DNA of 64,000 bases from Vermamoeba vermiformis (Eukaryota): positions 1-64,000 of the forward strand of contig JBEWZL010000292.1 in NCBI GenBank assembly GCA_045837725.1, given 5' to 3'. Under the pieces are notes generated by a model that was given only the letters and a program-made list of their open reading frames with translations, made no database searches and was not told where the DNA came from. The translations under genes were made by a program, and so were the position numbers. Positions 36,368 to 57,031 of this stretch are shown in pieces (position 1 is the first letter of the stretch; every line of letters starts with the position of its first letter).

Positions 36368-37422
36368 ATGTTGCGGAGATTAGGACTGGCTTTAAAGAGC
36401 ACATATGATCAATATAAGCCGCGTTATTCGTTGGGAGAAAGTAAGCGGATCGTGCCTCGATTGCGTAATAATGATGTAACGCAATTATTTTCTTAGTATT
36501 TCAGGCCAAACACATCTTCAAAGAGGAGCCCAAAGTGCCCAAAATGTTGTTCAGCTTTAATACGCCACACGACATCAGCAAGTGGCAAGTGCTGTGCGAT
36601 CGCGATGTCGGAGGTACGTGCGAGTGAGTTGCATGCAAGTGCACGTTGTAAATGTATTCACAGGCTTCTCAAATGCGACATTCACGCTCAAGAATGGCGT
36701 TGGTAAGTCAGATCTGGATCGCAGTTCTGAACTCACTTGACACGTGCTAGGTGTATTTGAAGGCACATTAGACACACGTACCAATCCTCAACTCGAGAAT
36801 ATGCGCAAGAGTGGCTATGCGGCCATCAAATCACCCGAATTTGAACCACTGCTGAATCTGGGTGGCTACACAGGTCTCGAGCTGCGCGTGCGTACTGATG
36901 AGCGCATCTACGTCGCACAACTGAAGAACGCGCGGCTGAGTGAAGACGATTTGTTTCAGACCGTGCTGCCCGTGCAGAGCAACAAGGCTGAGTTCCCACT
37001 GACTGCAGCACGCGTGAGTGAGGCCATTCAATACGAGCACGAGGACTACAAGAACGAGCTCAAGAACCGCGCCAAACAACTGCGCGGCGAGACTGTCACG
37101 CCCAGCACGGAGAGCACTGTCTCGAGTCCTGCAAGTAGCGGACAGTTGAGCGAGTGGTCAGATCTACGTCCCATTCGACAGCTTTGTGCTCACGTGGCGC
37201 GGGTACATTGAAATGACACAGCTGGTGGCACGTGTCACCCAACAGAGCTCACGGCGCGGTGAGACAGCAGTAGACCCTGAACGCATTGCGTCACTGGGCC
37301 TGTTGATGGCTGAACGACGCAGTGGTCCGTTCCGCGTGGAGATTGAGTGGATCCGCGCAGTGACTGAGCGCATGGTGACACCGACCACCGCACCGAGCAC
37401 TGGACGATACACCGCTGAATAG
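36368..37422 (+). CDS. NDUFAF1: Complex I assembly factor CIA30/NDUFAF1
   Basis: KWQVLCDRDVGGFS, GVFEGTL, SGYAAIKS, LELRVRTDER, GPFRVEIEWIRA. Confidence 0.85.
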
Positions 37423-37492
37423 GACTTGTAATATATATAGAGAGGCAGACAGTTAAATAGTATATAAATAATTTATTCACAAAAAACACCCC

Positions 37493-38003
37493 TTAGACGA
37501 CATAAGGGTTCTTACGCTTCTCTTGGAAGTACAACTGCACGTAGCGGATGGTGCACAGGAAGAAACAGCCGCCGTAGAATGCTGCCGTGTAGTAGCACGT
37601 TGCCGCGTAGGTGCGTGCTTCGTCTGGCGTCATGTCGCCTGCTCCGAGACGTGAATATTGACCGGGGTAGAATATGAGTGCCAATATAATCTGTGGACAT
37701 TAAATCAATATTAAGTGCTGTTGATCATCGCTGGTGCGTTACGAGGTGCTAGATCTGACAAATATCGTAATAACCGTTGCAAGTTAAATTATTTGAAGCC
37801 TAAAAATCGTCAACAACATATAAATACTCACCAACATAAATACTGAGCAGCATGAGAAGGACAAATAGCAAAGAGAGCCTATGACAATTCCGAATCAATA
37901 ATTTGTATTTTATGATTATTATTAGTTAATTCCTTGCGCTGTTTAAGAATAAATATAAATGATAAATTTACTTACAACCAGGACCGATAGGATTAGACAC
38001 CAT
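37493..38003 (-). CDS. Small 2-TM protein resembling RNASEK / V-ATPase subunit f
   Basis: MVSNPIGPGC..VFML..LALIF..AATCYYTAAFY pattern resembles the RNASEK family; 3 exons. Confidence 0.55.
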
Positions 38004-38288
38004 TTTGTATTTTAATTATATTTGTAGATTTGGATCGGATTTAACACAACGCACTACGGAACAGTAAAGCACTTTTGTTAATTAAATGTCCGCTGTGTTA
38101 GTGTCGGCAATATAGAGAACATACAGCTCTGTGTTCGCTGGACTTTTCGTGTGCGAGTTCCTTGGCGTTATTTATACTGCCTCCCTAAAATCAAAGGGAG
38201 GAAATCGGTGAAATTTCAGTGAGACCAGCCAGTACGCAGAAGTAGTGTTGCATATGATACAAGGGTTTATTTACAAGTGATAACTGCA

Positions 38289-39308
38289 TTAGTCTTGAAT
38301 CCAGTGCAAGAACAGTAATCCGAACGAGAGCAGCAGCAAGAACAGCAGCACGAAGATCCTGAAGTCCACACCGCGTTGACTGGCTTTGACCAGCTCTTTG
38401 TTGCCACGTGCCACACTCTTGCGCGCATCAATCGCGTGCTTGGTGATCTGGTGGATGTTGTCTTTCTGCTTCATCAAGTTCTCTGACAGGATCTGATGTG
38501 CTTGCGAGATGGCCACCACTTGCGTCTCGACCTCGCGCACCTGATCGACCATGTCATCGAGCTCTTTCTGCAGCACGACATTCTCTTTCAACAACTCGCG
38601 CGTCAGATCCTCACTCAGCTCCAGCTCGGCCACATTCAGCGACTCGCCTTGTATGGCGGGGATGTTCATCGTCTTGGGCTCGCTGCGTACTATTAATATA
38701 GACCCTACAGCTGTGGCTAGCGACTTACGGCGTGAGAGCAGCTTGTGCCATCTGCTGTTCAAATCTGAGAATTCTTTGCTTGGTGAGTCGTTCTGACACG
38801 TGCTCCAAGTAGTCAGCGAGGTGATACAATATGCCCTGATTGTGCGCAATCACATTGGGATTGCTATGCGCCTCTGTCTGCACTGCCAGCGAAGAGCAGT
38901 TAATACTCAGCAATGTTACTGCGGCAGATCCAGATCTCACCTAATATCTTGCGTATTTGATTGAGTCGCTGATTAGTCTCGCTGATATACAGCTGTGCCT
39001 CACGGTCAATCTCATCGCGGTCTCGTTCAGTGAGTTCATTGCCCTTGCTGAGACTGTGGCCAATATTCAAGTATTTATGACGATTATCTTCTAGAAATTT
39101 TTCAAATGTCTTGATGCTCTCATACTAGCGGTGTGGTAGTTAATATACATGCACATTAATTAAAAATAAATTATTTGCGCACCACTTCGTAGCAAGACTT
39201 TTGAAATTGCGTCGCGGGGTTGCTTGGCTTCAAGATCTGCTTCTTGCTCTGTTTCAGCTGACTGTGTTGCTGCAGACACTCGCGCCACACCGTGTTGGTT
39301 AGGTCCAT
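38289..39308 (-). CDS. STX18: Syntaxin 18 / Ufe1-like Qa-SNARE
   Basis: MDLT start, LTERDRDEID, SNARE helix ending GNKELVKA, C-terminal TM LLFLHW. Confidence 0.8.
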
Positions 39309-39387
39309 ATGTATTCAGTGCCTAGTGTGGTCTTGTCAACAAAATTACTAATATTTTAGTCCAGATCTTGACAACGTCAGCAAGAAC

Positions 39388-40986
39388 ATGCAGCGAGGAT
39401 GATTAAATGCATATTCTACAGTGAATTCGACAATATCGTCGGTCCTAAGATCGTACATCAAGTGCCTGAGAAGTAAGCACCGTCTGTTGCTCAGATCCAC
39501 CGCTAATCATTATCGCCAGTTTTATGAGCAATGATCTGTTCGATAAAATATCAGAATATATTATTACTAAGCCCACACTATGCGGTCGCACTGTCGGAGT
39601 GTAAGTACAACGTTGTAATAATAATAAAAAATATTATAATTATTTAATAAGGCTCAATAGCGAGCAATAACAGCGATCAGTCCGTATTCATTGATTGCGA
39701 TATTAATGTGCCTATTAGACGCAGTGGCAAGTACTGGATCATGGGGCGGCCAGTCTGTCTCTCGCACGCCAAGTACACGCGCAATGCACTGCTGTTCAAT
39801 CTCGGCGTGGTGATTGAACTCGATGGCGGAGTGCCACCTGCCACCGCACTGCAACTGTTGTTCCGCCCCAACACTGCGCGCGAGACACGACATACTCTGC
39901 TGCTCGACTCGCTCGAAGAGGTGTTGACCAAATTAGGAAATTATCTGTCCACACTCGAGGTAGAGTTCATGTTGTGACACGTGTCAAACAGAGGTGACTA
40001 ATGCACGACAGATTGAAAAAGAATTCCTGTCACGTGGTCGCGAGAACAAGACCAAATTAGGCTATCAAAGTGCGCAGCCCCCACGTGCGCGTGAACTCAC
40101 CTTCGACCACTTGCCGCACGTGATGCAGCAGCTGATCGGAGATCTCAATGCACGTGCGGAGTGTGCCGTGTCACTCACTGACTCGCACTTGATGCACGTC
40201 AAACTGCTCGCCAAGTGGCTCGATCCCCCCGAAGTGCTCGACTATCACGTGCCAGTGCCTGTCACGGACCTGTCACTCGCGGTCACGCACGAGTGGGATC
40301 TCTCCGTGCAGCGCATTATTCCGCTGGTGGATGGCGTGCACTACGTGAAGAAGATCGCGCTGCTGGCGGACATGGACATTGAACTCGTGAAGCGTGCCGT
40401 GCAGCACTTGGTGTACTACGACTGCTGTCGCTTGGTGCACGATGTCATGCAGAGCAGCAACCGCTACACCGCCACGGCACAGCTCACGCGACTCATGCAC
40501 CACCCCGCACTGCAGCGCCACTGTCTCCGCGCCGTCAGACTGCACCACGCACCGCGCACTGCTGTCCCGCCCCTCGCTGCTGTCACGCGCCTCTACGCGG
40601 CACTGCGACCGCACCAGCCCCTGATTGCCACCCTGCGCGAACTCGAAGGACAGCCCTGGCTCGCCAACTTTGATCTGCGCGGCTTCATCAACTTTGGACT
40701 CGTGCACGGGCTGATTCGTCGCGTGCACAAATATCCGCTGTCGATTGACATCAACTACTGGAACCGATTCAGAAGCGAGAGCGGCGAGCTGTGGGACACG
40801 AGTGACAGTTCAGTGAACAGCGGCGAGCACGTGACACCTGCCGATCTGCGCTTCAATCCGAGCACCGTGCTGCCCCTGGTGCAGCAGATGACTGACGGCA
40901 AGCACTCGTTCGATGAAATTTCGTGTGCCCTGGGATTGCCTTATTCGGTCATCGATCAGTTCTTTGACAAGAGCATCTATCGCTAG
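39388..40986 (+). CDS. NPRL2: GATOR1 subunit NPRL2/Npr2
   Basis: IFYSEFDNIVGPKIVHQVPE, KYTRNALLFNL, WDLSVQRIIPLVDGV, FGLVHGLIRRVHKYP, DGKHSFDEISC. Confidence 0.92.
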
Positions 40987-41045
40987 TGACACGTGTCATG
41001 CAGTCACCCCTGTAAATAAATCACCTTTAAATAGCGCGTGCCAGT

Positions 41046-42231
41046 TTATTGTTCGAGTTTGTGAAATAAAATATCTCCGGCCCAGCTCGTCGATGCGAAT
41101 TCCAGTTCGCGTTCTCCGTGCCAGCACACTGCGCGCACGAATCGCGTGTGTTGTGAGGTGTACCTGGCACGTGATCAGCATTCATGAACGAGTACTCAAC
41201 ACGTGCACTTACTTGAACTGCGGTGACTGCCAGTCAATGACAGCTGCCGTGTGGTCGTCGCTGCCCACTGCGAGCCAGTCACGTGATTTGTGAAATTTCA
41301 CTGTTTTCACTGGTGCATCAAACACGGTCTAAAAATAGAACAGTCAGTTCAGTCAGCGCACCAATCGCGGCACGTACACGCTTGTCCACGGGCTGGTTCA
41401 GCTGTCGCAGGTCATACAGTGCCACCGAGTCGTCTTCCAGTCCTGCACCGCGGTCAGTTGTCTAAATATGGCTACAATGCGTCACGTGACTCACCCAGGG
41501 CAACTAAATGGTCGCGTCGATCAACAGCGTATACCTCAAAAGGAAATACGAGTGTTTGCACAGGTTTGTGCTCCAGTCACGTGCCACAGCTTGAGAGTGC
41601 CACCACGTGCGTGATTGACCAAATCTTGACCGACACTCACGAGCTCATCGTTCAGCACGTGCAGACCGTGCACGCGACCCTGGTGCAGACTCCACTCTGA
41701 CACGCGCTCACCGATCAGTGGCACGTGACTCGTGACGTCACTGTTCGTCAGATCCTCTGCGCCTTTCATGAACGGATTCACGTGCCAGGTGACGGCACGC
41801 CCTGATTGAGTGCCCGCAGTGACGCGGAGCAGTGTCTCGCTTTGACTTTTGTTGACCAGTGCTGTCACTGCGTCACGTGGTGGTGCGGGCAAGAGACAGA
41901 TGTCACTCGATGCTGTCACGTGCTCGTCTTCGAATTCTTCCGACGTCACGTGCTGACCCCACATCGACTCTGCGTGGTGCTCGCCACGACCGAATTGCCT
42001 TTTTAGGAAATAGACACAGCCGTTCATGCCACCGCAGAGCATGCCGATCGATTTAGCGTCGTGTTTGACAGCAGTGACAGCATTGACTCCCGCGGTGAGA
42101 AATCTATTTTTAGCGCAGATCTGTGTTGGGGTGTGGAGGGAGATCTGGCCGGTCCACAACTCACCGCTGAGTGCTGCACTGCCCACCACCCACTCGTCTG
42201 CATCTAGATAATCGACTGCTTGGACTTGCAT
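41046..42231 (-). CDS. WD40 protein, MEP50/WDR77-like (start uncertain)
   Basis: GSAALSGELWTGQI near the N-terminus and HTRFVRAVCW..STSW at the C-terminus resemble MEP50. Confidence 0.6.
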
Positions 42232-42542
42232 TGGTCTGGTACGACGTCAGTGAATAATAATAGTGCGGCAATTAATTTAATTATAATTAATTCGCTGCGA
42301 TAATTATTAAATTAACGGCGTGAATATTGGTAGCATCGATTATATATCGCGATCTGCTTGATCTGACAGCCAAGTACTTACTAATTACGATCAAATTGAA
42401 CGGGTGTTATATTGCAATGAGCCCTATTAATTCAAGCTCTATGATCGTGTCGCTGGTGTTGCTCAGATCGCACGTGAAATAAACAAATTAATTCTCACTG
42501 CCACTCGCAACAACACACCTCATCATTAGTAACTGCAACATT

Positions 42543-43763
42543 ATGAGCAACGGTTGGCACGTAGAGCGATTGAGCGAGCGCGTGTGGAAAGCAGTGGAAT
42601 CAGATCCGTACGGTCAATATCCCTTCGTGTACTTTGTGCTTGGCTGGGACAAGATTGTAGTGATCGACACTGGTACTGGTGTGCATGACACACACGCACT
42701 GATGCTCTCAATCCCTGAGCTCAAGCAAGCAAATCTGCCTTTCTTGGTAGTGCTCACTCACATCCACTTTGATCACGTTGGTGGCGTCAAACATTTCAAG
42801 AATAAGCCTGGTAAAAATATAGCAGCCCTAATATCATTGCACATCAAATCAATTTCAATTTCAATTTTGAAGTTCAAATCTGCACCTGTTACAAAGACTC
42901 ATCTCTCGCACCAGGCAGTCTCGGCGTGTATATGAGTGGTGCTGACAAGACCTTCAGCGGCAACATTGAGATCAACAGCTTAGCGCTCGCACACAATGGC
43001 GCTAAGATTGAGCCCTTCACGGTCGATCGCTGGCTGAGTGATGGTGACGTCATAGCACTCGATCACGTGACTGACCACGTGACTGACCACGTGCTCAATG
43101 TGCTTGCCATCCCTGGTCACACGCCTGACTCGATTGCCCTCTATTTTGCAGCTGACAAGCGCATGTTCATTGGTGACATCTTGTGTAGGTCTCAGAGTGG
43201 TTATTTCCTAATTAGGCAATGACTGATCACGTGCTGTAGATCCCTTCACTGCGATACACTTGGACTGCATTGGCAGCAATGTCAACAGCTACGTGCAGTC
43301 CATTGACAAGTTGATCAGCTTCACGCGTGACAGGTGTCAAACATCGACCTCCACCACCAGCGCTGCACCAATCACCAACACCGCCAACACTGCAAAGATC
43401 GATCAGTTCATCTCGCTCGTAGGTCTCTCTCGTCCCGCGCCGTTCAATGTCGCAGCACTGCTGGCCCTGGTCGATGACTCGGTCGAGAATGCTGTCGCGC
43501 TCTACTTTGACGCCGGTGGTGACGTCACTGGTCTCGTCGGAGCTGCGCCGAGTGACGTGCCAGCCACGAGCAGTGACGTCATGCTGTCGTGCGGTCACGT
43601 GGAGGCTAATTTGAGCGTGCAATCTTTGCACCAATTGAAGACAGCGCTCGAATTAATCCGCGCTGGCGTGGTGCCACCAAGTCACGTGGACGGCGAATAT
43701 GGCGAGTATACCGTGGAGAACTTCACCATCATGCTGCCCATGAAACACGCGCACCAGCACTAA
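42543..43763 (+). CDS. Metallo-beta-lactamase-fold hydrolase with inserted UBA-like segment
   Basis: IDTG, THIHFDHVGG, PGHTPDS, FIGD, CGH; KIDQFISLVG..ALLALVDDSVENAVALYFD is UBA-like. Confidence 0.8.
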
Positions 43764-43853
43764 ATTTGGAAATCTGCAAATATTGTTGTTATTATTTTAA
43801 CTGTACAAAAAAGGGACCCTCGTCCATTATTTCCTAAATAAGGCAATTGTCCA

Positions 43854-46389
<2,536 letters not shown>

Positions 46390-46570
46390 TTTGACACTCT
46401 TAGCGCTGTGTGTGTTGTTGTTGTGGTCAAAAACGAAAATAAAATTTAAAAAATTAGCTCAAAAAAAGGCGGGCAATTGAAATTCCAAGTTAAATCGTCA
46501 CTGAAAGGGCTCAAATTGCAAATAAATGATTTATTAGCTTATTAGCTTAAGCTTCTTTATTCTATTTACA

Positions 46571-48459
46571 TTAAAATACAAGTCCTGATCTTAAATAGTC
46601 AATGAATTTAACAATGTCGTCCTTGTGGATCTGCACTGTCTGTGTATTGAAGCTGTGATAAGTAGCACGTGATCGCGTACGTTTCAAAGCTTTGTCAAAG
46701 TACGATGAAAAATTGCTGTTGCAATGGAAGGTTAGCAAGTCTACACAACGACAGTTGCGATACGTACTTGGGCACATTAGGCTGCGCAGAGTGTTGTCCA
46801 TTGAGTCCCACAATTAAATACCCCTCGTGTTGTCTGTCGTGCTCGTTCAGTGCGCCCACGAGCAGCGGCTTCACTTTCTTGGACTTGCCCATTTCCTGTG
46901 CAGCCACGTCAATACACGCTCAGTTCCATTCACCGTAGTGTACATACGATCAGTGTGTCCAACAAGAAGTGCGCCAGTTTAGAGAGGGCGAGTGGATGCA
47001 CAAAGTACTTGAGCTCGGGACTCTCGCTCAACAAGCAGTACCTGAACGGCCCTGACTGCACAATGTCTTTCTTCTCGATGATGGTGGTCACTTGTCGCAC
47101 GATGGCCTGTTGCAGCTGAATGGCTTGTTGAATGCCTTGCTGCAGCAGCTTGATGTTTTTGCTGTCAAACGGTCAGTACGTGTGACATTTGACACTGACA
47201 CGTGTCATTCACTCACCTCGATAGCGCGTCATAGGCCACCCAAAAATTGCGTTTCAACTGCTCGTGATAATGCGAGGCAGCAGCCGCCAAGTCCGCATCG
47301 TTGTTGACATCTTGATGCACGGGCAGATCCAACAGCGCGGTCACTGCCCACACCGTGTCCGCTGCCGAGACTACCATATCGCAGTGCTGCTTCTTGATGA
47401 AGGACGGATAGGTGAGCTGATCGAGATGAAAGTCCTTGCCGTGCTCAGTGAGCTTGTCGTGCAGCTGATCTTTGAATGTCTTATTCATCGTCAAATAGGA
47501 CATGCGACACTGTTCGAGCGGCACTCCCATCTTGGCCAGCAACATCTCCAAGCGACGGCGACCATTCGACTGCCACACACCGAGTCGCACCGCCACGTAC
47601 TTGCTGTGGTACATGCTGTCGTAGAGGTTCCAGTGACGGTACAAGAAGAACTTGTACTCTTCTGAGACCAAGATCCGGTGTTGATCCGCGAGCTGTTCAG
47701 TAGCCGCTTCATCGTCTTGAATATTGCGATTGAGTACTTCAGTCTTGAAGTGCACCACGTCATTGATGTAGCGCTCTTCGTCAATCTTCTGATGCAAGAA
47801 CTGATCTGTCAGACCCACCAGCGCGTACCACAGCAGTTCATTGTTGGCTTTGTTGAGCTGCGAGGCCAGTGCATATGTTAAGCCCGCGACTGTAGAGCCA
47901 TAGTATGCAGCATTGGTATTCATCAACTCCTCGCTGACGTCTTCGCTCTCTTCGTACACAACACCGTCGTCAAACAACAAGATCTGCTGCTTGTTGGCAA
48001 CATTTTCTGGGTGATAAGGACGATGACTATCGATGACATATAATGTTACTTTAGGCAACTTCTCCAGCTCGAATAGCTCGTCGAGATTGATGCCGCCGCC
48101 ACAATTCAGCATGACGATCGCGCGGAGCTAAACTGAGTTAGTTGCAATCAATTAACGCTTAAACACGTACCATGCTATTGTTTTTAATTAATTCTTGATA
48201 ACCACGTTCTAAATCTTCAAGACCATTAACACAAACAACGTTGTAGGAGATGAAGTCAGATTGAAACAACGACTGAACATATTAGTTAATTTCATATGAT
48301 ACTATTATATATATGGGTGATTATTACCGTTAAAATTTTACAAGCACAGACTGCATCACAATCGTAATCAACAAATACAACAACTGAAGATCCGAATTTT
48401 GCAACATCTTCTTTTACGAGCTGGTAGGCTCTGTTGTATTGTTCAATGGGTACTTTCAT
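46571..48459 (-). CDS. CDC45: Cell division control protein 45
   Basis: DCDAVCACKIL, NCGG, IDSHRP, LYRHWNLYDSM, LLAKMGVPL, NFWVAYDALS. Confidence 0.95.
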
Positions 48460-48627
48460 TATTAGTTGTGTTAATATAGGGAACTCTAACAACACAAAAA
48501 TTTTAAAAATTAACAACGGTCCGAGCGCGGGAACAGTTTGGTCAAACTTTGGTCAACGAGGGAAATTTCGAACCAACATAAAATCTTTTGGTATCTCAGT
48601 GATTGTGAACAGAACGAGGATTCGACC

Positions 48628-50080
48628 ATGGCTGATATTGAGGTAGAAAATAATATTGCGAATGGCAACGGTGAGGACCATGGTGTGTTGCACAAGAAGT
48701 CAATCCCAACGGAAATCTTGAAAAAGGAGTTTATGGACACGCCAGTTGAAAGTGATTCGTCTGAGGATGAAGCCACACCAGAAAGGAAGTTCGACGATGA
48801 TTTAACTCCTGCTGTAAGTGATTAACTATCATTACAAAAAACCGATAATTTAAATTTTAATTGTGCCTTTTATATACAGAGCTTGCCGAAAAAGAGAACG
48901 TTTGATACGTCTTTGGACGACGATGATAATGTTAAATATACTGCCAATGGAAATTCGAGTGATAGAGAGCTCAAAAAATTAAAGCGTGTGATCGAAGAGT
49001 TGGAAGACGAGCTAGCGGATGTAGAGGATGAAAAGAAAGATTTGAGACGAAAATTGACCACAGTGAGTGCCATACTCGCAGTTATAATAACATTGCAATT
49101 TTAACTTTTAAAAATGTTTCACAGACCGAAGAACAACTGTCACGTGCCGAGCTGTCACTCACCGAGCGCGAGGACGAATGCGCGGCACTCAAGCGCGACA
49201 TTGATCGGTGGCGCGCACGTGTCGATGAGGAGAGCAAGCGCCGCACTGCCCTCGAGGGTCAAATGAAGAGCCGCGAAGAGAAGTGGGCTGCAGTGGAGAG
49301 CAACGCATCCGAAGTGACGTATTTGGAAGGCAAGCTCGTGGAGGCACGTGTCGAGATCAAGAAGCTGAGCGATGAACTCGCCAAGGCCCGTGAAGAGCGC
49401 GACAAGATGGCGGAGAGTGTCAAAGAGGCCGGACACAGCAGCACCGAGTCGAGTCGCAAGCTGCAGCGCGAGATTGAGGCCCTGAAGCTGCGCCACGAGA
49501 CTGACCTCACGCTGCTGCGTCAAGAACTCGACGAGCAACACGACCTCGCGCAGAAGAGCATCGATCAGCTGCGCAACAAGTTCAAGGCTCAACTCGCTGC
49601 TGCCACCGCACAGAGCGAGGAGTCACGTGGCGATGAAGCGGAATTTCGTCGCGTGAAGCGCAAATTGGACCGCACCGTTCATGAACTGACGGAGAAATTG
49701 GAGACTGAACGATTGGAGCGCAGCAAAGATCTGCGCAACATTGAGAGCTTGACGCGCTTGAACAAGACCCTGCGCGAGAAGCTGGACAAGGTACGTAGTG
49801 ACTGGCGCATAGTTGAGGGATCGTGTACTGATGGTGGCACTAGCTGACACTCGACAAAGACAATCTCGACGAGGCCAAGTTCTCGTTGGAGAGTGAAGTG
49901 AAAGATCTGCGCACCAAGCTCGAGATTGCAGAGAAGCAGCGCCAACACTTCCAAGAGCAAGCACAAGCACTGCGCTACGAGTCGAGTGATCACGTGTCGT
50001 CGCGTCTCTCATCGAAGAGTGTACGAGCTGAAGAGCCCCACGTTGAGAGTGGTGCAGTTACAACTGTAGATGAGCAGTAA
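48628..50080 (+). CDS. Long coiled-coil (myosin-tail-like) protein
   Basis: Heptad-rich spliced exons (ORFs 48883, 49263, 49886). Confidence 0.65.
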
Positions 50081-50551
50081 TCATTGTTTTATTAGAATTA
50101 TTTAATTAAAGATTAATACCGCATTTTTGCTCGTACTCTTTCGATCCATCTTCTGCTCAGTTGCACTTGCCCTCAATTGGCCACATCTCGTAGCTTGACT
50201 GCAAAATGTTTAGGGCCTGTTGTGAAATCATTTATCCAGTCTGGCTCTGCTGGCCACTTGGAATGTTGCAGGGTCCCAATGTGGTTGCATTTTGGAAGTA
50301 TCCAGAAGTTTTTACCTCATGGAACATGCATTGTCCAGGCTGGACATCTCACCCTGGCCAATTGGCCATCCTCCAATGGCTTTAACATTTTGCATGTATT
50401 AGAATGGAATATTGTGAATGAGATGTTTCTCTAACGAAGTGCTCATATTGATTCTTTCTATTGAACTCTCGCATATCATAATCCGCTGTCATCAAAATCT
50501 TTGTTAAATGCAATTTTATTGAAAAAGTAAAAAGACTCCATTAACATTTCA

Positions 50552-51448
50552 CTAAAAATATTGGTTTGGTAAACTAGTGCCAGAGGTGTGTGCTAGTGCG
50601 CTTATCAGTAGTTGCTCATTTTGTAGCTCATGCAATCGTTCTTCATAGATTTGTCGCTCAATCCTGTCTCTCTCCTGATTTGAACGCAGCTCAATCCTGT
50701 CTCTCTCTTGATTTGAACGCAGCTCGCTTTTGATTAGGTCATAGCGTAGTGCTTGTAACTCCTGTTTGTTGATTCTTAAGCGCAATGCTAGCGGTATATC
50801 TGCAGGGCATTGGTAAAGCTGCGACTCCAGTTGGGGTTCAGTAACTTCATGCCTCGCAGTGCTTGCAGAAGTTGTGATCTGGGTGCAATTGGATGACTTT
50901 GGTTTGGGCTGGAGAAGGGGTGGTTGTGCTTCTTCACAGATTGTCTTTGTTCTCTTGTTGGACTTTAATGTGGTTATGGCCTTCCTAACTCTCTTCTCTT
51001 TTGGGTGTGCCTTGCTGCACTCATCAAAGGGCAAGGGTTTGTTCACTTGTCTCTTTTCTCTAGTATATACTGTTGTTGGGGCTTTGATAACCTTTGGTGG
51101 CACTTTCTGGGCTCCAATCCACTCCCCAAGACACTTTGTAATTGAAGTCTCATCAGCTGGCTCTGCCTGCAATACATTGCACCACTCTAGGGATAAGAGC
51201 TTGGGCTTGGTGTCGTACTGTCCATCAGCAACTGCAAGGACCTTGGTGTGTTGGGTTTTATCCTTTGCCAGTGACAGCACCCTGTACATTCTCCTGCGAA
51301 ATGAGATCAAGTCTCCAATCTGAAGCTTGACTGCACCCCCAGGTGACACCAGTTGAGGATATAGTTCGTAGTGTCCAGCTTGCTGAGGCACACCTACTGC
51401 ACTGCATTCAGAAAGGGTGACTGACTCCTGGTCAAGCTGTGCCAACTC
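50552..51448 (-). CDS. Orphan cargo protein: possible BAH/SH3-like N-terminal domain, low-complexity linker, coiled-coil tail (5' exons unresolved)
   Basis: 297-aa open exon preceded by a GT-AG intron (~51449-51492); YELYPQLVSPGGAVKLQIGDLISFRRRMYRVLSL. Confidence 0.55.
   Translation of the reverse strand, partial: ELAQLDQESVTLSECSAVGVPQQAGHYELYPQLVSPGGAVKLQIGDLISFRRRMYRVLSLAKDKTQHTKVLAVADGQYDTKPKLLSLEWCNVLQAEPADETSITKCLGEWIGAQKVPPKVIKAPTTVYTREKRQVNKPLPFDECSKAHPKEKRVRKAITTLKSNKRTKTICEEAQPPLLQPKPKSSNCTQITTSASTARHEVTEPQLESQLYQCPADIPLALRLRINKQELQALRYDLIKSELRSNQERDRIELRSNQERDRIERQIYEERLHELQNEQLLISALAHTSGTSLPNQYF
50656..50725. repeat. 33-bp tandem duplication encoding ELRSNQERDRI twice
   Basis: gctcaatcctgtctctctc(c/t)tgatttgaacgca x2, one mismatch. 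Confidence 0.95.
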
Positions 51449-51777
51449 CTAAATATGCCGTGAGAATGAAATCAAGCCTAGAAGATATATACCTGGTATT
51501 GCTGTGTCGGTGGGGCCGTCGGATTTGCGTTTAAGTTTGAAGTCTGAAAAATTTTTTTAAGTGTGGTGCAAAAATTTCAATTCGAGTTTGATTATAGGGG
51601 TAGGTATTGGATCTGAAAGCGGAATCGACAAATTTGTTGTCGTAGGAAAGATAAAGGGGCTGCAAATCTGAAAAAGCTAAAAATAGCACACCTAGCAAGC
51701 CGCAAGTGCACGAACAAGAAAATTTGCCAAGTCGAACGGACAGTTAATTTCAATTTTCTCATCTTAAACAACACAAG

Positions 51778-52765
51778 ATGGAGAAATATATTGACGGGCC
51801 AGTTGTGCGCAATGGAATCAATTATTATACGTTAAAATTCAGTCCTCCTCCTGTCTCTCGTTTCGATCCACCCAACACCAAGTAAAAATTTTAAAAAAAA
51901 AAAGATAATGTTTGATATAAAGGAAAAAATTAAAAGCAGCAAACAACAATGCAAACCGACCATTCCCGGTGAAGAATCATTTCATATTGGCTTTTGGCGT
52001 AGATACGCACTAATGATTCTGCTGTCGCGAGACTCTCGTGCTGGTGCTAGTGCGTTTTGTGAGTTGCCTGGCGTGGTGGAGTTTTTCAACGAGATTGACC
52101 GGCTGTTCGAGTTCCTTGACAAGGACCTCTACGAGGAATATTGCAGCGTCACACCCGATGAACAGCGTGTTTGCGGCAAATCGTTCTTGATGACCGTACT
52201 CAACCGTGGCGGATCCGATCCGCACATTGATAGTGAAGATCGCGTTGGTGGTTGTTGTTGCATTGTGCCTATTGGCACAGACTGGACCGGTGGCGAGTTG
52301 GCATTTCGAGACCTCCACGTTGCCGTTGACTGCACTCCAGGCGATGTTGTGTTTTTCAGATCCGCCGAGCTGTACCACGAGAATTTGGACTACTACGGTG
52401 ATCGCCGCTCAATTGTGTTGACCTCCGATCAGAACAGTTTCAGTGCATCGGGTCAAATGCTGGATCCTGACATGATTGAAGAGGCTAGGCGATACAACGA
52501 GCAGCACAACGTCAAAACAAAAGATAAGATCGAATGGTGCTTGCGTCCATTACTCGATTGGTTTAGCACTCCAGAGGAATTGCGTGCGTACATCAGAGAG
52601 CGTGCCAAACAAAGAATTCAGCAGCGCATTGCTTTTAAGCAGAACAAGCACCTCATTGACGCGACCAAAATTGCGTGGGACAGCCGCCAATTTAAAACAA
52701 AGGATCGCTCACCAAGCACCACGAAATTAAATCGTCGTCACCGAAATGCTCCAAAACGAAAATAA
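51778..52765 (+). CDS. TET/JBP-family 2OG-Fe(II) dioxygenase (1 intron)
   Basis: HIGFWRRY; N..PHIDSED (HxD), CCIVPIG.DWTGGEL.F, PGDVVFFRSAELYHEN (distal His), RRSIVL (2OG-binding Arg); basic C-terminal tail. Confidence 0.8.
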
Positions 52766-52790
52766 ACTTACAGTTATTGGGCTTTCATTC

Positions 52791-53423
52791 TCAACTTGGT
52801 TTGTTTTTGTTGTCACATCCGCAATCTGTATTTGGCACGTCAATTGGCACGTGCGTTCTTTTCACAATTAAGCATGAATTTACCTCATTGTCGATTGGTT
52901 TTGCGCTACTTGAAATCTGATTTCCCACAGTTGTTTGTAGATCTAAGTCACTTCGTGTGCTGACGGTACCAACCTGATACATGCGTCACTTTCGAAGTAC
53001 AGCTCATTCTAAATTTAGATTTTTCAACCAAAAATAGAGCTCTCGATTAACAAAGAAAGCTCTGTATTATCGACTACTAACTCACTTGTGTGACGGCATT
53101 AGTTTGATCATTTAATGTAGTGCTTGGGCTTTCATGTTCCGTGGAGAACTGAGTTGGCCCCGACTCCTGTTCGAGGTTACATCTCTTTTTTACATTTGTC
53201 CGAAAAAACTGGATCTCACCGGTTCGTCACTCTCGTTATTGGCATTATGGAGTATGTCTCTTCTTTGTGCTCTGCTAAGTAGTGGCCCTTGCAATTCAGG
53301 TTCATCATCGTCAGTCTGAAACAACCAACCGTGTTTTTAGTCTTATTGTCAGCGACTTTAATTATTAACGAGTATTACTTGAAGTAGAAGCACATCACTA
53401 TCACCAGATTCTTGTATTGACAT
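52791..53423 (-). CDS. Possible small spliced acidic/low-complexity orphan gene (3' end uncertain)
   Basis: ATG at 53423 gives MSIQESGDSDVLLLQ|TDDDEPEL..ESDEP|ESGPTQF.. joined by phase-compatible GT-AG introns. Confidence 0.35.
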
Positions 53424-53457
53424 TGTTCGTGGTTTACTGAATGATTACTCAATCAAA

Positions 53458-55710
53458 ATGGACACGAACCTGATAAAAGGTAGCTTCGTCATTTTTCAGG
53501 CACCAGTCTTAACATAATTATTTAGCTCGCAACCTAATTAAGCAGTGCCATCCCAGAAATGAATCCAGCCACTTCGAAGCAGGAAAACGAGTTGACACAC
53601 CCAAAAGGCTTACGATAGACGGTGATCAAGCTTTAAAACTCAGTATTGATAAAAACCACATACCTTTGTAAGTCCTTGATTTACGTGTAATTTATTCTTT
53701 ATTGTAACTTTTTTGTTAGAAATACTCGCAAGCAAGATCGACTTTGTAACTCGTTGCATTTGAGCGAGATTCTCTACGCACATTGTTGTCCTCAACAGTG
53801 CATTGCAAAGCACTTGAAAGAAACTCCTACTGCCATCCAAGAGCACTTAAAGCTGTGGTCTGGACTGCCGCAAGACTTGCTCTCTGAAGAACTCGCTAAA
53901 GTGCTAGACTCCTGTCAGGTAAGCCAGTTCTATGCATAACTACAACTTAAACTGAATTGTGCTACCAGGTGGAGCATGCAACTGAAAAAAGCGTCAAAAT
54001 ACAAGGAAATTATTATAATTTGAAGTGGCACGGAGTATCCTTATGTCGAACTGCCTTTCAATTGCTTTATGGGGTTTCCAGAAGAAAGCTAATCTCAGCT
54101 TGTGGTGGCTCATACTTACAACCGCATGGCAACACATTGATCTACCACGAAAACAGCTTGACCTTGGATATTTTGAACTTTCTTGATGATTTGAAAGCAC
54201 GCTGTGGTAATCAATGTGATTCGGACCCAACAAAAGATTATTTGAATGGCTTTTACGAGAAGAAACAAGTGTGGAAGCACTACATTGATTCACGATCCGG
54301 TAACGAAGATGTGGCAAGTGACTCTCACTTCTATGCAGTATGGAGCCATCACCGCCCGAACTTGGTAGTTGAAAATGATGCTATGAAGTGTGCGACATGT
54401 ACAAAACTTGATATCTTGATGAAGTCAGCGTAAGTGCACTTGGTAAATAAGAAAAAACTAAGTCTGTGCAGGTCTGAAGAAGAAATTGTTTCACTCAAAG
54501 CTGACAAATTGAGGCACAAGCAAGTGAAGAAAGTGCACTTAGACAGAATGCATTCTTTAATGGCACGGGCCAAGAGAGGGCAGTTTTTACTTCTCATTGG
54601 GGATCACATGCGAAGCAAAGGCATACCCAAGTTGAAACGCAACAATATGAATATTTTAATGAGTGAACTTATCAACATTCACTTCTCTGGTTGGTTCAAC
54701 CCGTATTCCGGAAAGTCCAAGTACTACCTCTTCCCTGAGCATTGGTCAGAGAGTGCCAACTCAATCATATCTTGCCTACATGCATTGCTGAAGGAACTGA
54801 ACTCACCACAGAGAAAGTTGGTCCTGGTTTTCGACAACCACAGCACACAGCACAACAATGCTCTGCTTGCTTATTGCGACTGGCTTGTACGGTAAGTAAC
54901 TAGACCCTAATTGACTAATACTAATAGCCGTTTAGCTTCAACGGCACGTTTGATGAGATAGAGATCTTGTTTTTAATTGCAGGGCACACCAAGAACAAGC
55001 AAGATCAAATGAACTCCTATGTCGCCGGCGAATACATGAAGCGACAATTCTTCAGCATTTCAGACCTTTGCACACTGGGCAATGACAAGCGGGAGTTTCA
55101 AGAACAACAACATATCTTGCAGTGGGTTAAAAAGTTCGCTCCTCTTATCAACGAGTACCCCAATGTGTCAAAAGCTCATCTCTTCTTATTCACAAGAGAA
55201 GGATTGACCACCAAAGAGTTTGTTGATGACTTAGAATGGAACAGCTGGAATTACCAAGATCCTATGTCACACCATCACATGCTACTCTCCAAACCGGTTG
55301 GAGTGCTCGAACCAATGCAGCCATACAAGTTGTCAGACAAGAAAAAACATGATGCCAAAGCATCTCTTGCCTATATCCCTATTGAGCACCGAGACTACAT
55401 TTCCAAGTTGCTGGTGAACGATTTTGGGTACCAAATTCAAGCAGTCGATGCTTTTGGTGAATTGGGTATGGCTACAAGACCAATTGCTCCACCAATGCCA
55501 AGATCAATCGTGTTCCGTGAGAAAAGAAAGAGAGGACAGCAACAGCCAAGTAAAGCTCAGCATCCCAATGCAACTGCACTGTATTCTGAAGACACGCTAG
55601 AACCTGGTGAACTGGATGACATCTTACAATCTGCTCCTCCTGGTGAGTACTATGACAGTGCTGAGGAGCAATGCCAGGCAAAGAAAAAGCATAAATCTAC
55701 TCAGAACTAA
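53458..55710 (+). CDS. Sola-superfamily (Sola2/DUF7869-like) DDD transposase, 6 exons, reading frame intact
   Basis: LCRTAFQLLYGVSRRKL..PHGN, KKQVWKHY..FYAVW..CATC; putative catalytic LIGDHM, VFDNHSTQHNN, FLIAGHTKNKQD; five GT-AG introns join in frame. Confidence 0.75.
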
Positions 55711-55914
55711 TTCATTTTTACATCACACTAAAGTTTTTACTTTTTCAATAAAAATGCATTGTTACTTGAGATATTTGGAGCTTGATTTCAAGGACCTTTC
55801 CTCTGCTCAATCCCTAGCGCTTGGCCAGCAAGGAAACCATCAAACTTATCCAAAATATTGGTATCCACAACAATTAGGCGCTATAGCATTTTATTCCATG
55901 AGAACCTAGTGACA

Positions 55915-57031
55915 GCGGACACCCTGTCCAGGTCTTAGGAGTCACTGCATCTGCTGTAGAACTTTGTTCTATATGCTGCAAAACATTTAAACTTTGGAAA
56001 TACATTGAACTATCCTATAGGCGGACGTTCTGTCCGTGGACATTGCGCCCGTCCGGGGTTGCTGCGTCCGCTGATGTTGGTAATTGACCAACTATACCAA
56101 ACTCGGCCGTTAGCATCAGTGGGCCCAAGAAACACTACTATTGCGTCAGGAGGCTTTGGGCTAAACGCCAGAGGCTGAAAATGGCAATGTTCTGCAAAGA
56201 ACTTAGGTACTAGAACTTTGTTCTATTGGCTGCAATACCATTGAAACTTTGGAAACTCCTAGACCTATCACTATCTAACAAAAAAATATAAGTGATCATC
56301 AAAGATATTGTAGTGGCAGCAAATTGTAAATTTTCAACATTAAGTTATGAACCCCTCCATCGGCACATACTGTGCACAACATAACTAGACGTATTTTATG
56401 CACCACTGAACTTTAGCTACAATTCATTGTCACCTAACTGTCCAAAAAATGTTGCATCATCCATACTTTTTTTATGTTGTAACGTTGTCCAGATGGATAA
56501 TGTAGCCAGGCTGGACTATCAATCTGTCTGGCTACATCATCCACACTGGATTGGCCATCTTCCTTTGGCCAGAACACATTGTCACAATGATTTCTTTTTG
56601 CATCATCCATACTTTTTTTATGTTGTAACTTTGTCCAGTGGTTGCAAACCGTTTTATAAATGATATGCTTAATCATATGATACACAGCATATAGAAGTCT
56701 TATTAAAATCTCATAATGACGTATGGTCAGCAGACGCGCGGTTGGTGGCACATCCAATTTTTGTCAGACAGGACGTCCGCCACTGAGATACTAACATCTA
56801 TTTACTTGTTTACCATGGTGCTAGCTGAAGTTAAGGTGGTATTGCAGCATAAAGAACAAAGCTCGGTGCTTAGGTTCATTGTTAAATATTAAGATTGTCA
56901 GCCTCCAGTACTCAGCCATATGCTTAATCATGTTATGGCATGTAGAAACTTATTAAACTTTACAGATATGATGTTAGGTCACAAACATGTGGTTGTGGAG
57001 GACACCAATTTTTGGACAGGACCACCACTGA
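55915..57031. repeat. Block of degenerate direct and inverted repeats
   Basis: A: 55957-56014 and 56211-56269, inverted copy 56828-56878; B: 56452-56492 and 56598-56638; C: 56663-56786 and 56918-57031; D: 56020-56034 inverted to 56767-56781 (14/15 match). Confidence 0.85.

Follow-up and report, generated by a model that had tools for sequence, protein, structure and literature searches.

A predicted TET/JBP-family dioxygenase gene carried by a DNA transposon bounded by terminal inverted repeats

A 64,000-nt stretch of DNA (contig JBEWZL010000292.1, positions 1 to 64,000; hereafter the window) was found to contain a 5,254-bp element (50507-55760), in which an open reading frame designated ORF3, a TET/JBP-type dioxygenase gene (TET) and a DDE-type transposase gene lie between 27-nt inverted repeats that match at 26 of 27 positions (Table 1). 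The repeat gave exactly two matches in the window versus none in each of 100 shuffles, and the chance of a match of at least four bases between the flanks was estimated at approximately 0.5%. The TET gene is a passenger in a DNA transposon, which has inverted repeats, a target-site duplication and a transposase. In style the window is eukaryotic, with sparse long open reading frames (ORFs) and short GT..AG introns, and it contained no tRNA or Rfam matches. Relatives designated L001, L002, and L003 were obtained in one metagenome scan; L002 and L003 are one locus sampled twice, so that they represent two independent loci.

Table 1. Positions of the transposon ends, genes and sequence features in the window. 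"81 sequences" refers to the alignment of the window protein with 80 relatives; X1 is a DNA sequencing run.
Feature	Position	Strand	Remarks
Left target-site duplication, GTTA, 4 bp	50503..50506	.	Identical to 55761-55764; match only at length 4
Left terminal inverted repeat, 27 nt, AATGCAATTTTATTGAAAAAGTAAAAA	50507..50533	+	96% complementary pair; AATAAA on the ORF3 strand
ORF3, 297 aa	50552..51445	-	Divergent from the TET gene; conserved N-terminal domain of ~100 aa and coiled-coil-like C-terminal part; CpG observed/expected 0.28
Probable upstream exon of the TET gene, MEKYIDGPVVRNGINYYTLKFSPPPVSRFDPPNT	51778..51881	+	GT donor at 51882; peptide conserved in L001 314-373, where it opens a longer first exon
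A-rich stretch, 74 nt	51876..51949	+	In relatives, a beta-hairpin and the beginning of a helix are encoded here; the X1 contig has 267 letters instead
Main ORF of the predicted TET/JBP dioxygenase, 285 aa	51908..52765	+	Catalytic double-stranded beta-helix core at residues ~20-180; the C-terminal part beyond it is helical and closes with a basic tail
H106-I-D108-S-E-D111, predicted Fe(II) ligands (HxD) and Asp at HxD+3	52223..52240	+	H106 and D108 invariant, D111 in at least 90% of 81 sequences; aligned with NgTET1 H229, D231 and D234
G115-C116-C117-C118 motif	52250..52261	+	Invariant in the close family
Distal His H157 (LYHEN) and predicted 2-oxoglutarate-binding R166-R-S168	52376..52411	+	Invariant in 81 sequences; aligned with NgTET1 H279 and R289
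DDE-type transposase gene	53694..55710	+	At least 4 exons and at least 626 codons; start codon not found
Right terminal inverted repeat, 27 nt	55734..55760	-	1 mismatch to the left arm
Right target-site duplication, GTTA	55761..55764	.	Read directly

An earlier reading of this DNA, made from the sequence alone, had listed the motifs of a TET-like enzyme (HxD as HID, LYHEN, RRSIVL, GGEL.F, PGDVVFF, and a basic C-terminal tail), and all of these were found in the 285-aa translation of 51908-52765 (+). PHID, with H106 and D108, is encoded at nt 52223-52231, H157 of LYHEN at nt 52376-52378, and R166 and S168 of RRSIVL at nt 52403-52411, while GGELAF and PGDVVFF occupy residues 128-133 and 144-150, respectively, and the basic tail (...KLNRRHRNAPKRK) closes the ORF. 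The same reading had placed the start of the gene at 51778. This start is defensible because the upstream peptide VRNGINYYTLKFSPPPVSRF is conserved in L001 (314-373, 70%, tblastx), and the exon to which it corresponds, judged by this conservation, probably belongs to the TET gene. However, 51778-51907 is out of frame with the TET ORF and a straight reading from 51778 is full of stops, so that a splice is required: the exon uses another frame and reaches the ORF only through a GT..AG intron of 55-58 nt.

The four exons recognized in the transposase gene (53694-53918, 53969-54429, 54472-54891, and 54936-55710) are separated by canonical GT..AG introns of 50, 42, and 44 nt, two of which occur at the same places in L001. 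The last intron splits a match to the Pfam domain DUF7869, of which positions 7-85 were found in 54434-54895 (23.5 bits) and positions 97-177 in 54967-55710 (26.5 bits; cutoff 26). A search for longer relatives of the transposase found none, as did a search for literature mentioning DUF7869. Two homologues of ORF3 were identified, one with 99% identity and one with 44% (P0158), and both the N- and C-terminal parts were strongly conserved in their alignment; ORF3 gave no Pfam or PDB match. A 33-nt tandem duplication within ORF3 (50656-50721), which doubles the peptide RSNQERDRIEL, is shared by the 99%-identical relative but not by the 44%-identical one. The reading frames of the transposase and of ORF3 are both intact.

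Chance does not account for the motifs of the TET protein: of 496 candidates in a homology search, 11 were homologues at E <= 1e-3 (best E-values 1e-186 to 1e-44). The close family is small and patchy, with 11 close matches among 5.8 billion clusters, some of these clusters occurring on several contigs. An exhaustive search retrieved 368 relatives at E <= 1e-3, 54 at E <= 1e-10, and 11 at E <= 1e-30. One match in this search (P0024) was an artificial repeat construct and was excluded. Relatives were found neither in the prokaryote genome contigs nor in the viral contigs searched. For alignment, the window protein was combined with 80 of the 150 listed matches, chosen for a length of 180-440 aa and an HxD...H...RxS pattern and including the close family, with fragments and P0024 dropped. 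H106, D108, H157, R166, and S168 were the only invariant columns in the resulting 81 sequences, which bears out the complete Fe(II)/2-oxoglutarate site claimed in the sequence-only reading. In profile alignments the two histidines, D108 and R166 coincided with the NgTET1 residues listed in Table 1, and PGDVVFF aligned with PGDVLFF of NgTET1, in line with the claimed resemblance of this strand to Naegleria TET.

A profile built from the 81 relatives matched NgTET1 with an E-value of 9.5e-17, CcTet with 5e-12, and TET2 with 1.2e-3, while the best non-TET chain, a prolyl hydroxylase, reached only 0.12. Pfam family Tet_JBP (PF12851) was matched at E <= 1e-3 by 73 of the 81 sequences; no further Pfam family matched the 285-aa protein at E <= 1, and neither a J-binding nor an SNF2 domain was detected. 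A phmmer search of the PDB with the single window protein returned nothing relevant.

Consistent with the profile matches, the predicted structure of the window protein was TET-like. The AlphaFold2 model, for which the 81-sequence alignment served as input, had a mean predicted local distance difference test score (pLDDT) of 79.6, with blocks of at least 84 over residues 21-170 and a core above 90; an earlier run with 11 close relatives gave a pLDDT of 41 and was discarded. Among the matches listed by Foldseek, every entry from rank 1 to rank 20 was a chain of NgTET1, CcTet, or CMD1 (E-values between 4e-8 and 1e-5; 4.5e-6 for CMD1), and the first non-TET chain appeared at rank 22 (E 1.3e-4). 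Superposition with VIA-align gave a Z-score of 17.6 for NgTET1 (root-mean-square deviation 2.2 A over 173 residues, 19% identity), 15.5-15.9 for CcTet, and 12.7-13.1 for TET2, against at most 11.6 for AlkB, ALKBH5, PHD2, and FTO. NgTET1 and CcTet were therefore the best structural matches, and not a prolyl hydroxylase, AlkB or a small-molecule oxygenase, the classes whose emergence as best match the sequence-only reading had named as evidence against itself. Of the best seven matches in a viral library, four had no name, two were JBP1/TET oxygenases and one carried the annotation of an SNF2 DNA repair protein. Profile matches and predicted fold thus both sustained the assignment to TET/JBP-like enzymes, and the ORF is, on this modelling, a genuine gene of the TET/JBP family of Fe(II)/2-oxoglutarate dioxygenases.

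Comparison with relatives revealed a gap near the N-terminus of the window copy. Record 2 of DNA run X1 (5,173 nt) showed 0 differences from the window over 50432-51875 and 51950-55411, with 267 letters between these segments versus 74 in the window. The distance from PPPVS to CKP in the window is 91 A-rich nucleotides, as compared with 233 nt from PPKVS to CKP in L001. The TET protein of L001, which is 48% identical to that of the window, is encoded by a first exon, MSAAHMFEGPPVVRGGIKYYTLNVAPPKVS...GNFVVLSPEGRW, followed by a 53-nt GTAAGT..CAG intron and then by LIWNLSGRISPQLNTNLYDSVRIIEETCKP...; its stretch VVLSPEGRW/LIWNL...L..S...IEE corresponds to a hairpin plus helix, which the family profile aligned with NgTET1 residues ~95-131. 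At least 60 residues precede the GxW motif in 51 of the 81 relatives and 27 in the window ORF, and in place of the window's KSSKQQCKP the 97%-identical relative P0001 ends its helix normally, with KLIEATCKP. An in-frame splice from 51881 to 51937 is possible but still leaves the protein approximately 48 residues short. The missing segment comprises a beta-hairpin and the beginning of a helix, and its absence is a defect of the window copy and not of the family, to be explained by a deleted allele, by a second haplotype or by an error of assembly. Because these ~48 residues of the relatives and of NgTET1 are missing, the activity of the window copy itself is uncertain. The sequence-only reading had called the enzyme compact, a compactness that derives in part from this defect.

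The gap could also mean that the window copy is a decaying relic, in which a deletion of ~190 nt took the N-terminal hairpin and helix and left no active enzyme, the family itself still being a transposon-borne TET. We regard such decay as a doubtful explanation, though one that carries appreciable weight. Besides the 267 letters of the X1 contig, which is otherwise identical over 4.9 kb, it would account for the 74 nt at 51876-51949 being stop-filled in the exon-1 frame, and for a PPKVS-CKP gap of 60 residues in L001 versus 12 in the window under its best splicing; the hairpin, moreover, is part of the conserved core that aligns with NgTET1 and occurs in 51 of the 81 relatives. Against decay, no stop interrupts the 285-aa frame, none of the invariant residues has been lost, splicing in frame from 51881 to either 51937 or 51940 is possible, the neighbouring transposase and ORF3 frames have likewise been retained, and the difference between 74 and 267 letters may be an assembly artefact or reflect a second allele.

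Linkage of TET to transposase genes was also observed outside the window, in all three fetched loci and thus at two independent loci. L001 is a metagenome contig of another species, on which a transposase gene of the same family follows the TET gene at a distance of 1.3 kb; both genes showed approximately 67% nucleotide identity to those of the window, and the transposase exons were 63-84% identical at the amino-acid level. L002/L003 contains a frame-broken TET-like gene between a DDE_Tnp_4 (Harbinger-type) and a DDE_3 (Tc1-type) piece. This split gene (L002 4387-5364, corresponding to L003 3320-4297) is 54% identical to that of the window; its 3' ORF runs into the Tc1/IS630-type DDE_3 domain (E 4.5e-12), and the DDE_Tnp_4 piece lies ~400 nt upstream. 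The pattern of the 27-nt inverted repeat was absent from L001-L003, of which L001 reaches neither end of its element. Two contigs are close to the element in size, one of 5,243 nt with the TET gene of P0001 and one of 5,513 nt with the ORF3 relative P0158. In run X1, the right end of the element recurs in records 3 and 4 as two short copies that have diverged, and joints from 50533 to 51660 and from 51043 to 55369 represent possible internal-deletion derivatives, the shorter sides of these joints being only 27 and 32 letters long.

The base-binding pocket was examined for indications of the substrate. In the profile alignment, H-I-D-S-E-D of the window protein and H229-K-D231-N-L-D234 of NgTET1 align without a gap, which places D111 at the HxD+3 position. 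The residue at this position (Asp234 in NgTET1, Asn1387 in TET2, Asp350 in CMD1) forms a hydrogen bond with N4 of 5-methylcytosine (5mC) but is in steric conflict with the methyl group of N6-methyladenine (6mA) (PMC11040006; PMC7854593). CcTet, which has Gly331 at HxD+3, accepts 6mA, and the N1387G variant of TET2 gains 6mA activity (PMC11040006). By this precedent, D111 would favour 5mC over 6mA as substrate. The sequence-only reading had held that the substrate cannot be read from sequence; this remains true in so far as it is not fully readable, but the aspartate at HxD+3 argues, by the precedent of NgTET1, TET2, and CMD1, for 5mC and against 6mA. Its further suggestion of a possible new base-modifying activity appears, given D111, less likely than ordinary 5mC oxidation: on these residues the enzyme is most likely an ordinary 5mC oxidase, and the prospect of new base chemistry is weak.

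The opposite side of the pocket is less conserved. F295, H297, and N147, which in NgTET1 stack on the base and contact its N3 and O2 (PMC7854593), align with T172, D174, and R32 of the window protein, although a shift by one residue is possible in this profile alignment. With these replacements the far side of the base pocket would differ, and base recognition would not simply be NgTET1-like. The close family, in addition, has invariant motifs of its own, GCCC and D174-x-N176-x-F178; by our own reading of the profile alignments, C117 of GCCC falls at NgTET1 S238 and CcTet D337. Together with the capacity of the fungal relative CcTet to take 6mA (PMC11040006) and the statement by Kojima (2025) that divergent transposon-borne TETs may have other activities (PMC12730594), these features could point to a substrate other than 5mC, such as 6mA in duplex DNA, thymine (oxidized in a JBP-like manner to 5-hydroxymethyluracil) or RNA. 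We consider this improbable: D111, which occupies the position where a side chain blocks 6mA, is conserved almost throughout the alignment, and neither a J-binding nor another extra domain accompanies the catalytic core.

CpG content provided a further, indirect view of the relevant DNA mark. Depletion was judged from the ratio of observed to expected CpG and from the number of 2000 shuffles in which the ratio was as low. Host DNA in the window was not depleted (1.05-1.10), and neither were the TET ORF (1.20), the intergenic region 5' of it (1.10) and the TET ORF of L001 (1.08). By contrast, CpG was depleted in the element minus the TET ORF (0.59), the transposase (0.52) and ORF3 (Table 1), as it was in the transposase (0.53) and spacer (0.55) of L001 and in the broken TET copy of L002 (0.45); in none of these regions did any of the 2000 shuffles score as low. 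The high-copy repeat next to the element was also depleted (0.60; 2/2000). For GpC, observed/expected ratios were 1.15-1.29 across the window regions and 0.62-0.95 in some pieces of L001 and L002. At synonymous sites, codon usage showed the same division: CGN codons made up 0.81 and 0.90 of the Arg codons in the TET genes of the window and L001 and 0.93 in eight host ORFs, as compared with 0.54 and 0.57 in the respective transposases and 0.33 in ORF3. Across codon junctions, the CpG ratio was 1.09/1.12 for TET and 1.06 for host genes versus 0.54/0.60 for the transposases and 0.24 for ORF3.

This pattern resembles CpG decay caused by methylation, which would have affected repeats and the remaining genes of the element but spared the TET gene, and it hints at CpG methylation of the element and at 5mC as the relevant mark. 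TET may have been spared by local self-demethylation, through selection on its codon usage, or because its origin differs. Depletion that is specific for CpG, with GpC in the element normal at ~1.2, points to cytosine methylation and hence speaks against a substrate other than 5mC, while the host-like CpG content of the TET ORF, unlike that of the broken L002 copy, argues against the window copy being a relic.

The host-like CpG content and codon usage of TET, so different from those of its neighbours, would also be expected of an ordinary or domesticated host TET gene that happens to lie beside a transposase, the inverted repeat then being a shared 3'-untranslated sequence and not a pair of transposon ends. 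Single-copy read depth in X1 and the presence of AATAAA in both repeat arms, just beyond the stop codons, are compatible with such an arrangement. It is nevertheless very improbable, since the inverted match precisely brackets three genes with the same 4 bp outside, the same pairing of TET with transposase recurs in L001 at ~67% nucleotide identity, and a second TET-like locus is embedded among pieces of other transposases. A small, patchy family and the existence of two contigs of about the size of the element are likewise difficult to reconcile with a host gene.

Complete elements that carry TET genes have been described by Kojima (2025) for 11 DNA-transposon lineages in rusts, mushrooms, and Pezizomycetes, and CcTet is, according to the same source, likely of transposon (Kyakuja) origin (PMC12730594). 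TET carriers were proposed to counter silencing by methylation, a proposal offered without experimental proof (PMC12730594). Viewed against these elements, we consider it reasonably probable that the locus represents a TET/JBP passenger of a cut-and-paste transposon with a DDE transposase and ORF3, of a family that most likely oxidizes 5mC to counteract silencing. The most likely task of the enzyme family, as suggested by D111 and the CpG pattern, would be the oxidation of 5mC in DNA to 5-hydroxymethylcytosine, possibly further. By analogy with the fungal elements, such oxidation may remove or rewrite the CpG methylation that silences the element, which is presumably mobile. The position of the gene as a passenger in a transposon points to anti-silencing of the element rather than to a host epigenetic enzyme.

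Several observations weigh against this interpretation. The window ORF lacks the N-terminal hairpin, the first residue of its model corresponding to NgTET1 residue 121, and the three NgTET1 base contacts discussed above appear, by the profile alignment, to be replaced. On its own, the window protein scored below the Pfam Tet_JBP cutoff (21.4 vs 34.9 bits; E 1.6e-4); this cutoff is a curation threshold and not a biological feature, and the sequence comes from a divergent subfamily. No assignment of the transposase to a named superfamily was possible, its matches being limited to DUF7869 and a marginal DDE_3 hit (E 0.036) in Pfam, with no PDB match. The window holds one full copy of the element, for which the depth in X1 (~332, as compared with ~397 for the flanks) indicates a single copy and gives no sign of recent mobility. 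Finally, CpG depletion is indirect evidence of 5mC.

The element is of a kind already known in fungi, namely a transposon-encoded TET. Iyer et al. are said to have reported, in 2014, that TET/JBP genes adjoin KDZ and Plavaka transposases in basidiomycetes. With the TET transposons described by Kojima, the element shares a TET/JBP gene within a unit that is bounded by terminal inverted repeats and target-site duplications and includes a DDD/E transposase gene; no glycosyltransferase or other modifying gene lies alongside, and escape from silencing by methylation has been proposed (PMC12730594). It differs in the DUF7869 type of its transposase (DDE_3 being marginal), its 4-bp duplication and the additional ORF3, a distinction drawn from the description of those elements (PMC12730594). 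A literature search for a link between JBP/TET and oomycetes gave only two matches, both unrelated; as a phrase search it misses "TET/JBP" and under-counts.

Of the characterized enzymes, NgTET1 (PDB 4LT5, 5CG8, 5CG9) was the best match by both profile and fold, and shares the HxD..H..R site, the aspartate at HxD+3, the PGDV(V/L)FF strand and a small, single-domain size. The window ORF differs from it in its low identity (19%), its start at the equivalent of residue 121, the absence of like residues at the positions aligned with F295, H297, and N147, and the GCCC motif and conserved helical, basic C-terminal extension of its family. NgTET1 is not known to be transposon-borne. CcTet of Coprinopsis cinerea (PDB 7VPN, 7W5P, 8JKK) was the second-best structural and profile match. 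Its Gly331 at HxD+3 and Asp337 allow demethylation of 6mA (PMC11040006), whereas the window protein has D111 and C117 at these positions, the first being that of a "conventional TET." CMD1 of Chlamydomonas (PDB 7CY4-7CY8) and human TET2 have the same fold, with Asp350 and Asn1387, respectively, at HxD+3, but are far larger and contain extra domains; in CMD1, moreover, vitamin C replaces 2-oxoglutarate, while the window protein retains the 2-oxoglutarate-binding residue R166. The kinetoplastid thymine hydroxylases JBP1 and JBP2 belong to the same Pfam family (PF12851) but differ from the 285-aa window protein, in which no J-binding or SWI2/SNF2 domain was detected.

Host genes and a repeat were recognized on either side of the element. 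Upstream, host replication genes occupy 44169-48112 on the minus strand; they include a CDC45 fragment (PF02724 in 29 of 30 Atlas hits), and two ORFs at 44169-45963 resemble MCM by eye. A host gene for a coiled-coil protein (49000-50080) was expressed and spliced in two RNA runs with the same species label (joints 49059/49125 and 49790/49845). RNA reads were placed only on this neighbouring gene (49000-50067); each differed by 1-10% from the window and none reached 99% identity, which indicates a well-diverged strain. On 50068-57000 there were effectively no reads, a result that is uninformative on expression given a strain divergence of 5-10%. To the right of the element, 55942-56900 is a very high-copy repeat, with summed contig depths in X1 of 36,899-49,146 in the two bins covering 55942-56475 and of 1,797 and 591 in the next two bins, against ~330-400 in the flanks. 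Direct and inverted repeats lie within it (pairs I1 and I3; families D1 and D3) and rearranged joints are numerous, so that this region looks like a cluster of elements resembling miniature inverted-repeat transposable elements. Parts of the window stretch were also found in water and aquifer metagenome runs.

A more far-reaching interpretation would be that the element represents an unclassified, DUF7869-type transposase lineage with a 4-bp duplication, in a host that may fall outside the three known fungal groups, and that its TET is active in vivo and acts locally. The TET gene and its promoter, CpG-rich in two species, beside neighbours (transposase and ORF3) that lie some hundreds of bases away and from which between one half and three quarters of the CpGs have disappeared, and the depletion of the broken L002 copy, would then be the footprint of self-demethylation with a preference in cis. 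We regard this as rather unlikely; what the element does offer is a contrast within one unit, seen in two species, between a CpG-rich TET gene and CpG-poor neighbours. Among candidates for a mobile element able to erase the DNA-methylation silencing imposed by its host, transposon-borne TETs are the clearest; the activity of such an enzyme is not known to have been tied to the element's own DNA. The element in the window extends this group by a compact case with three genes and another type of transposase and, if its host is not a fungus, it would widen the known range of TET-carrying transposons.

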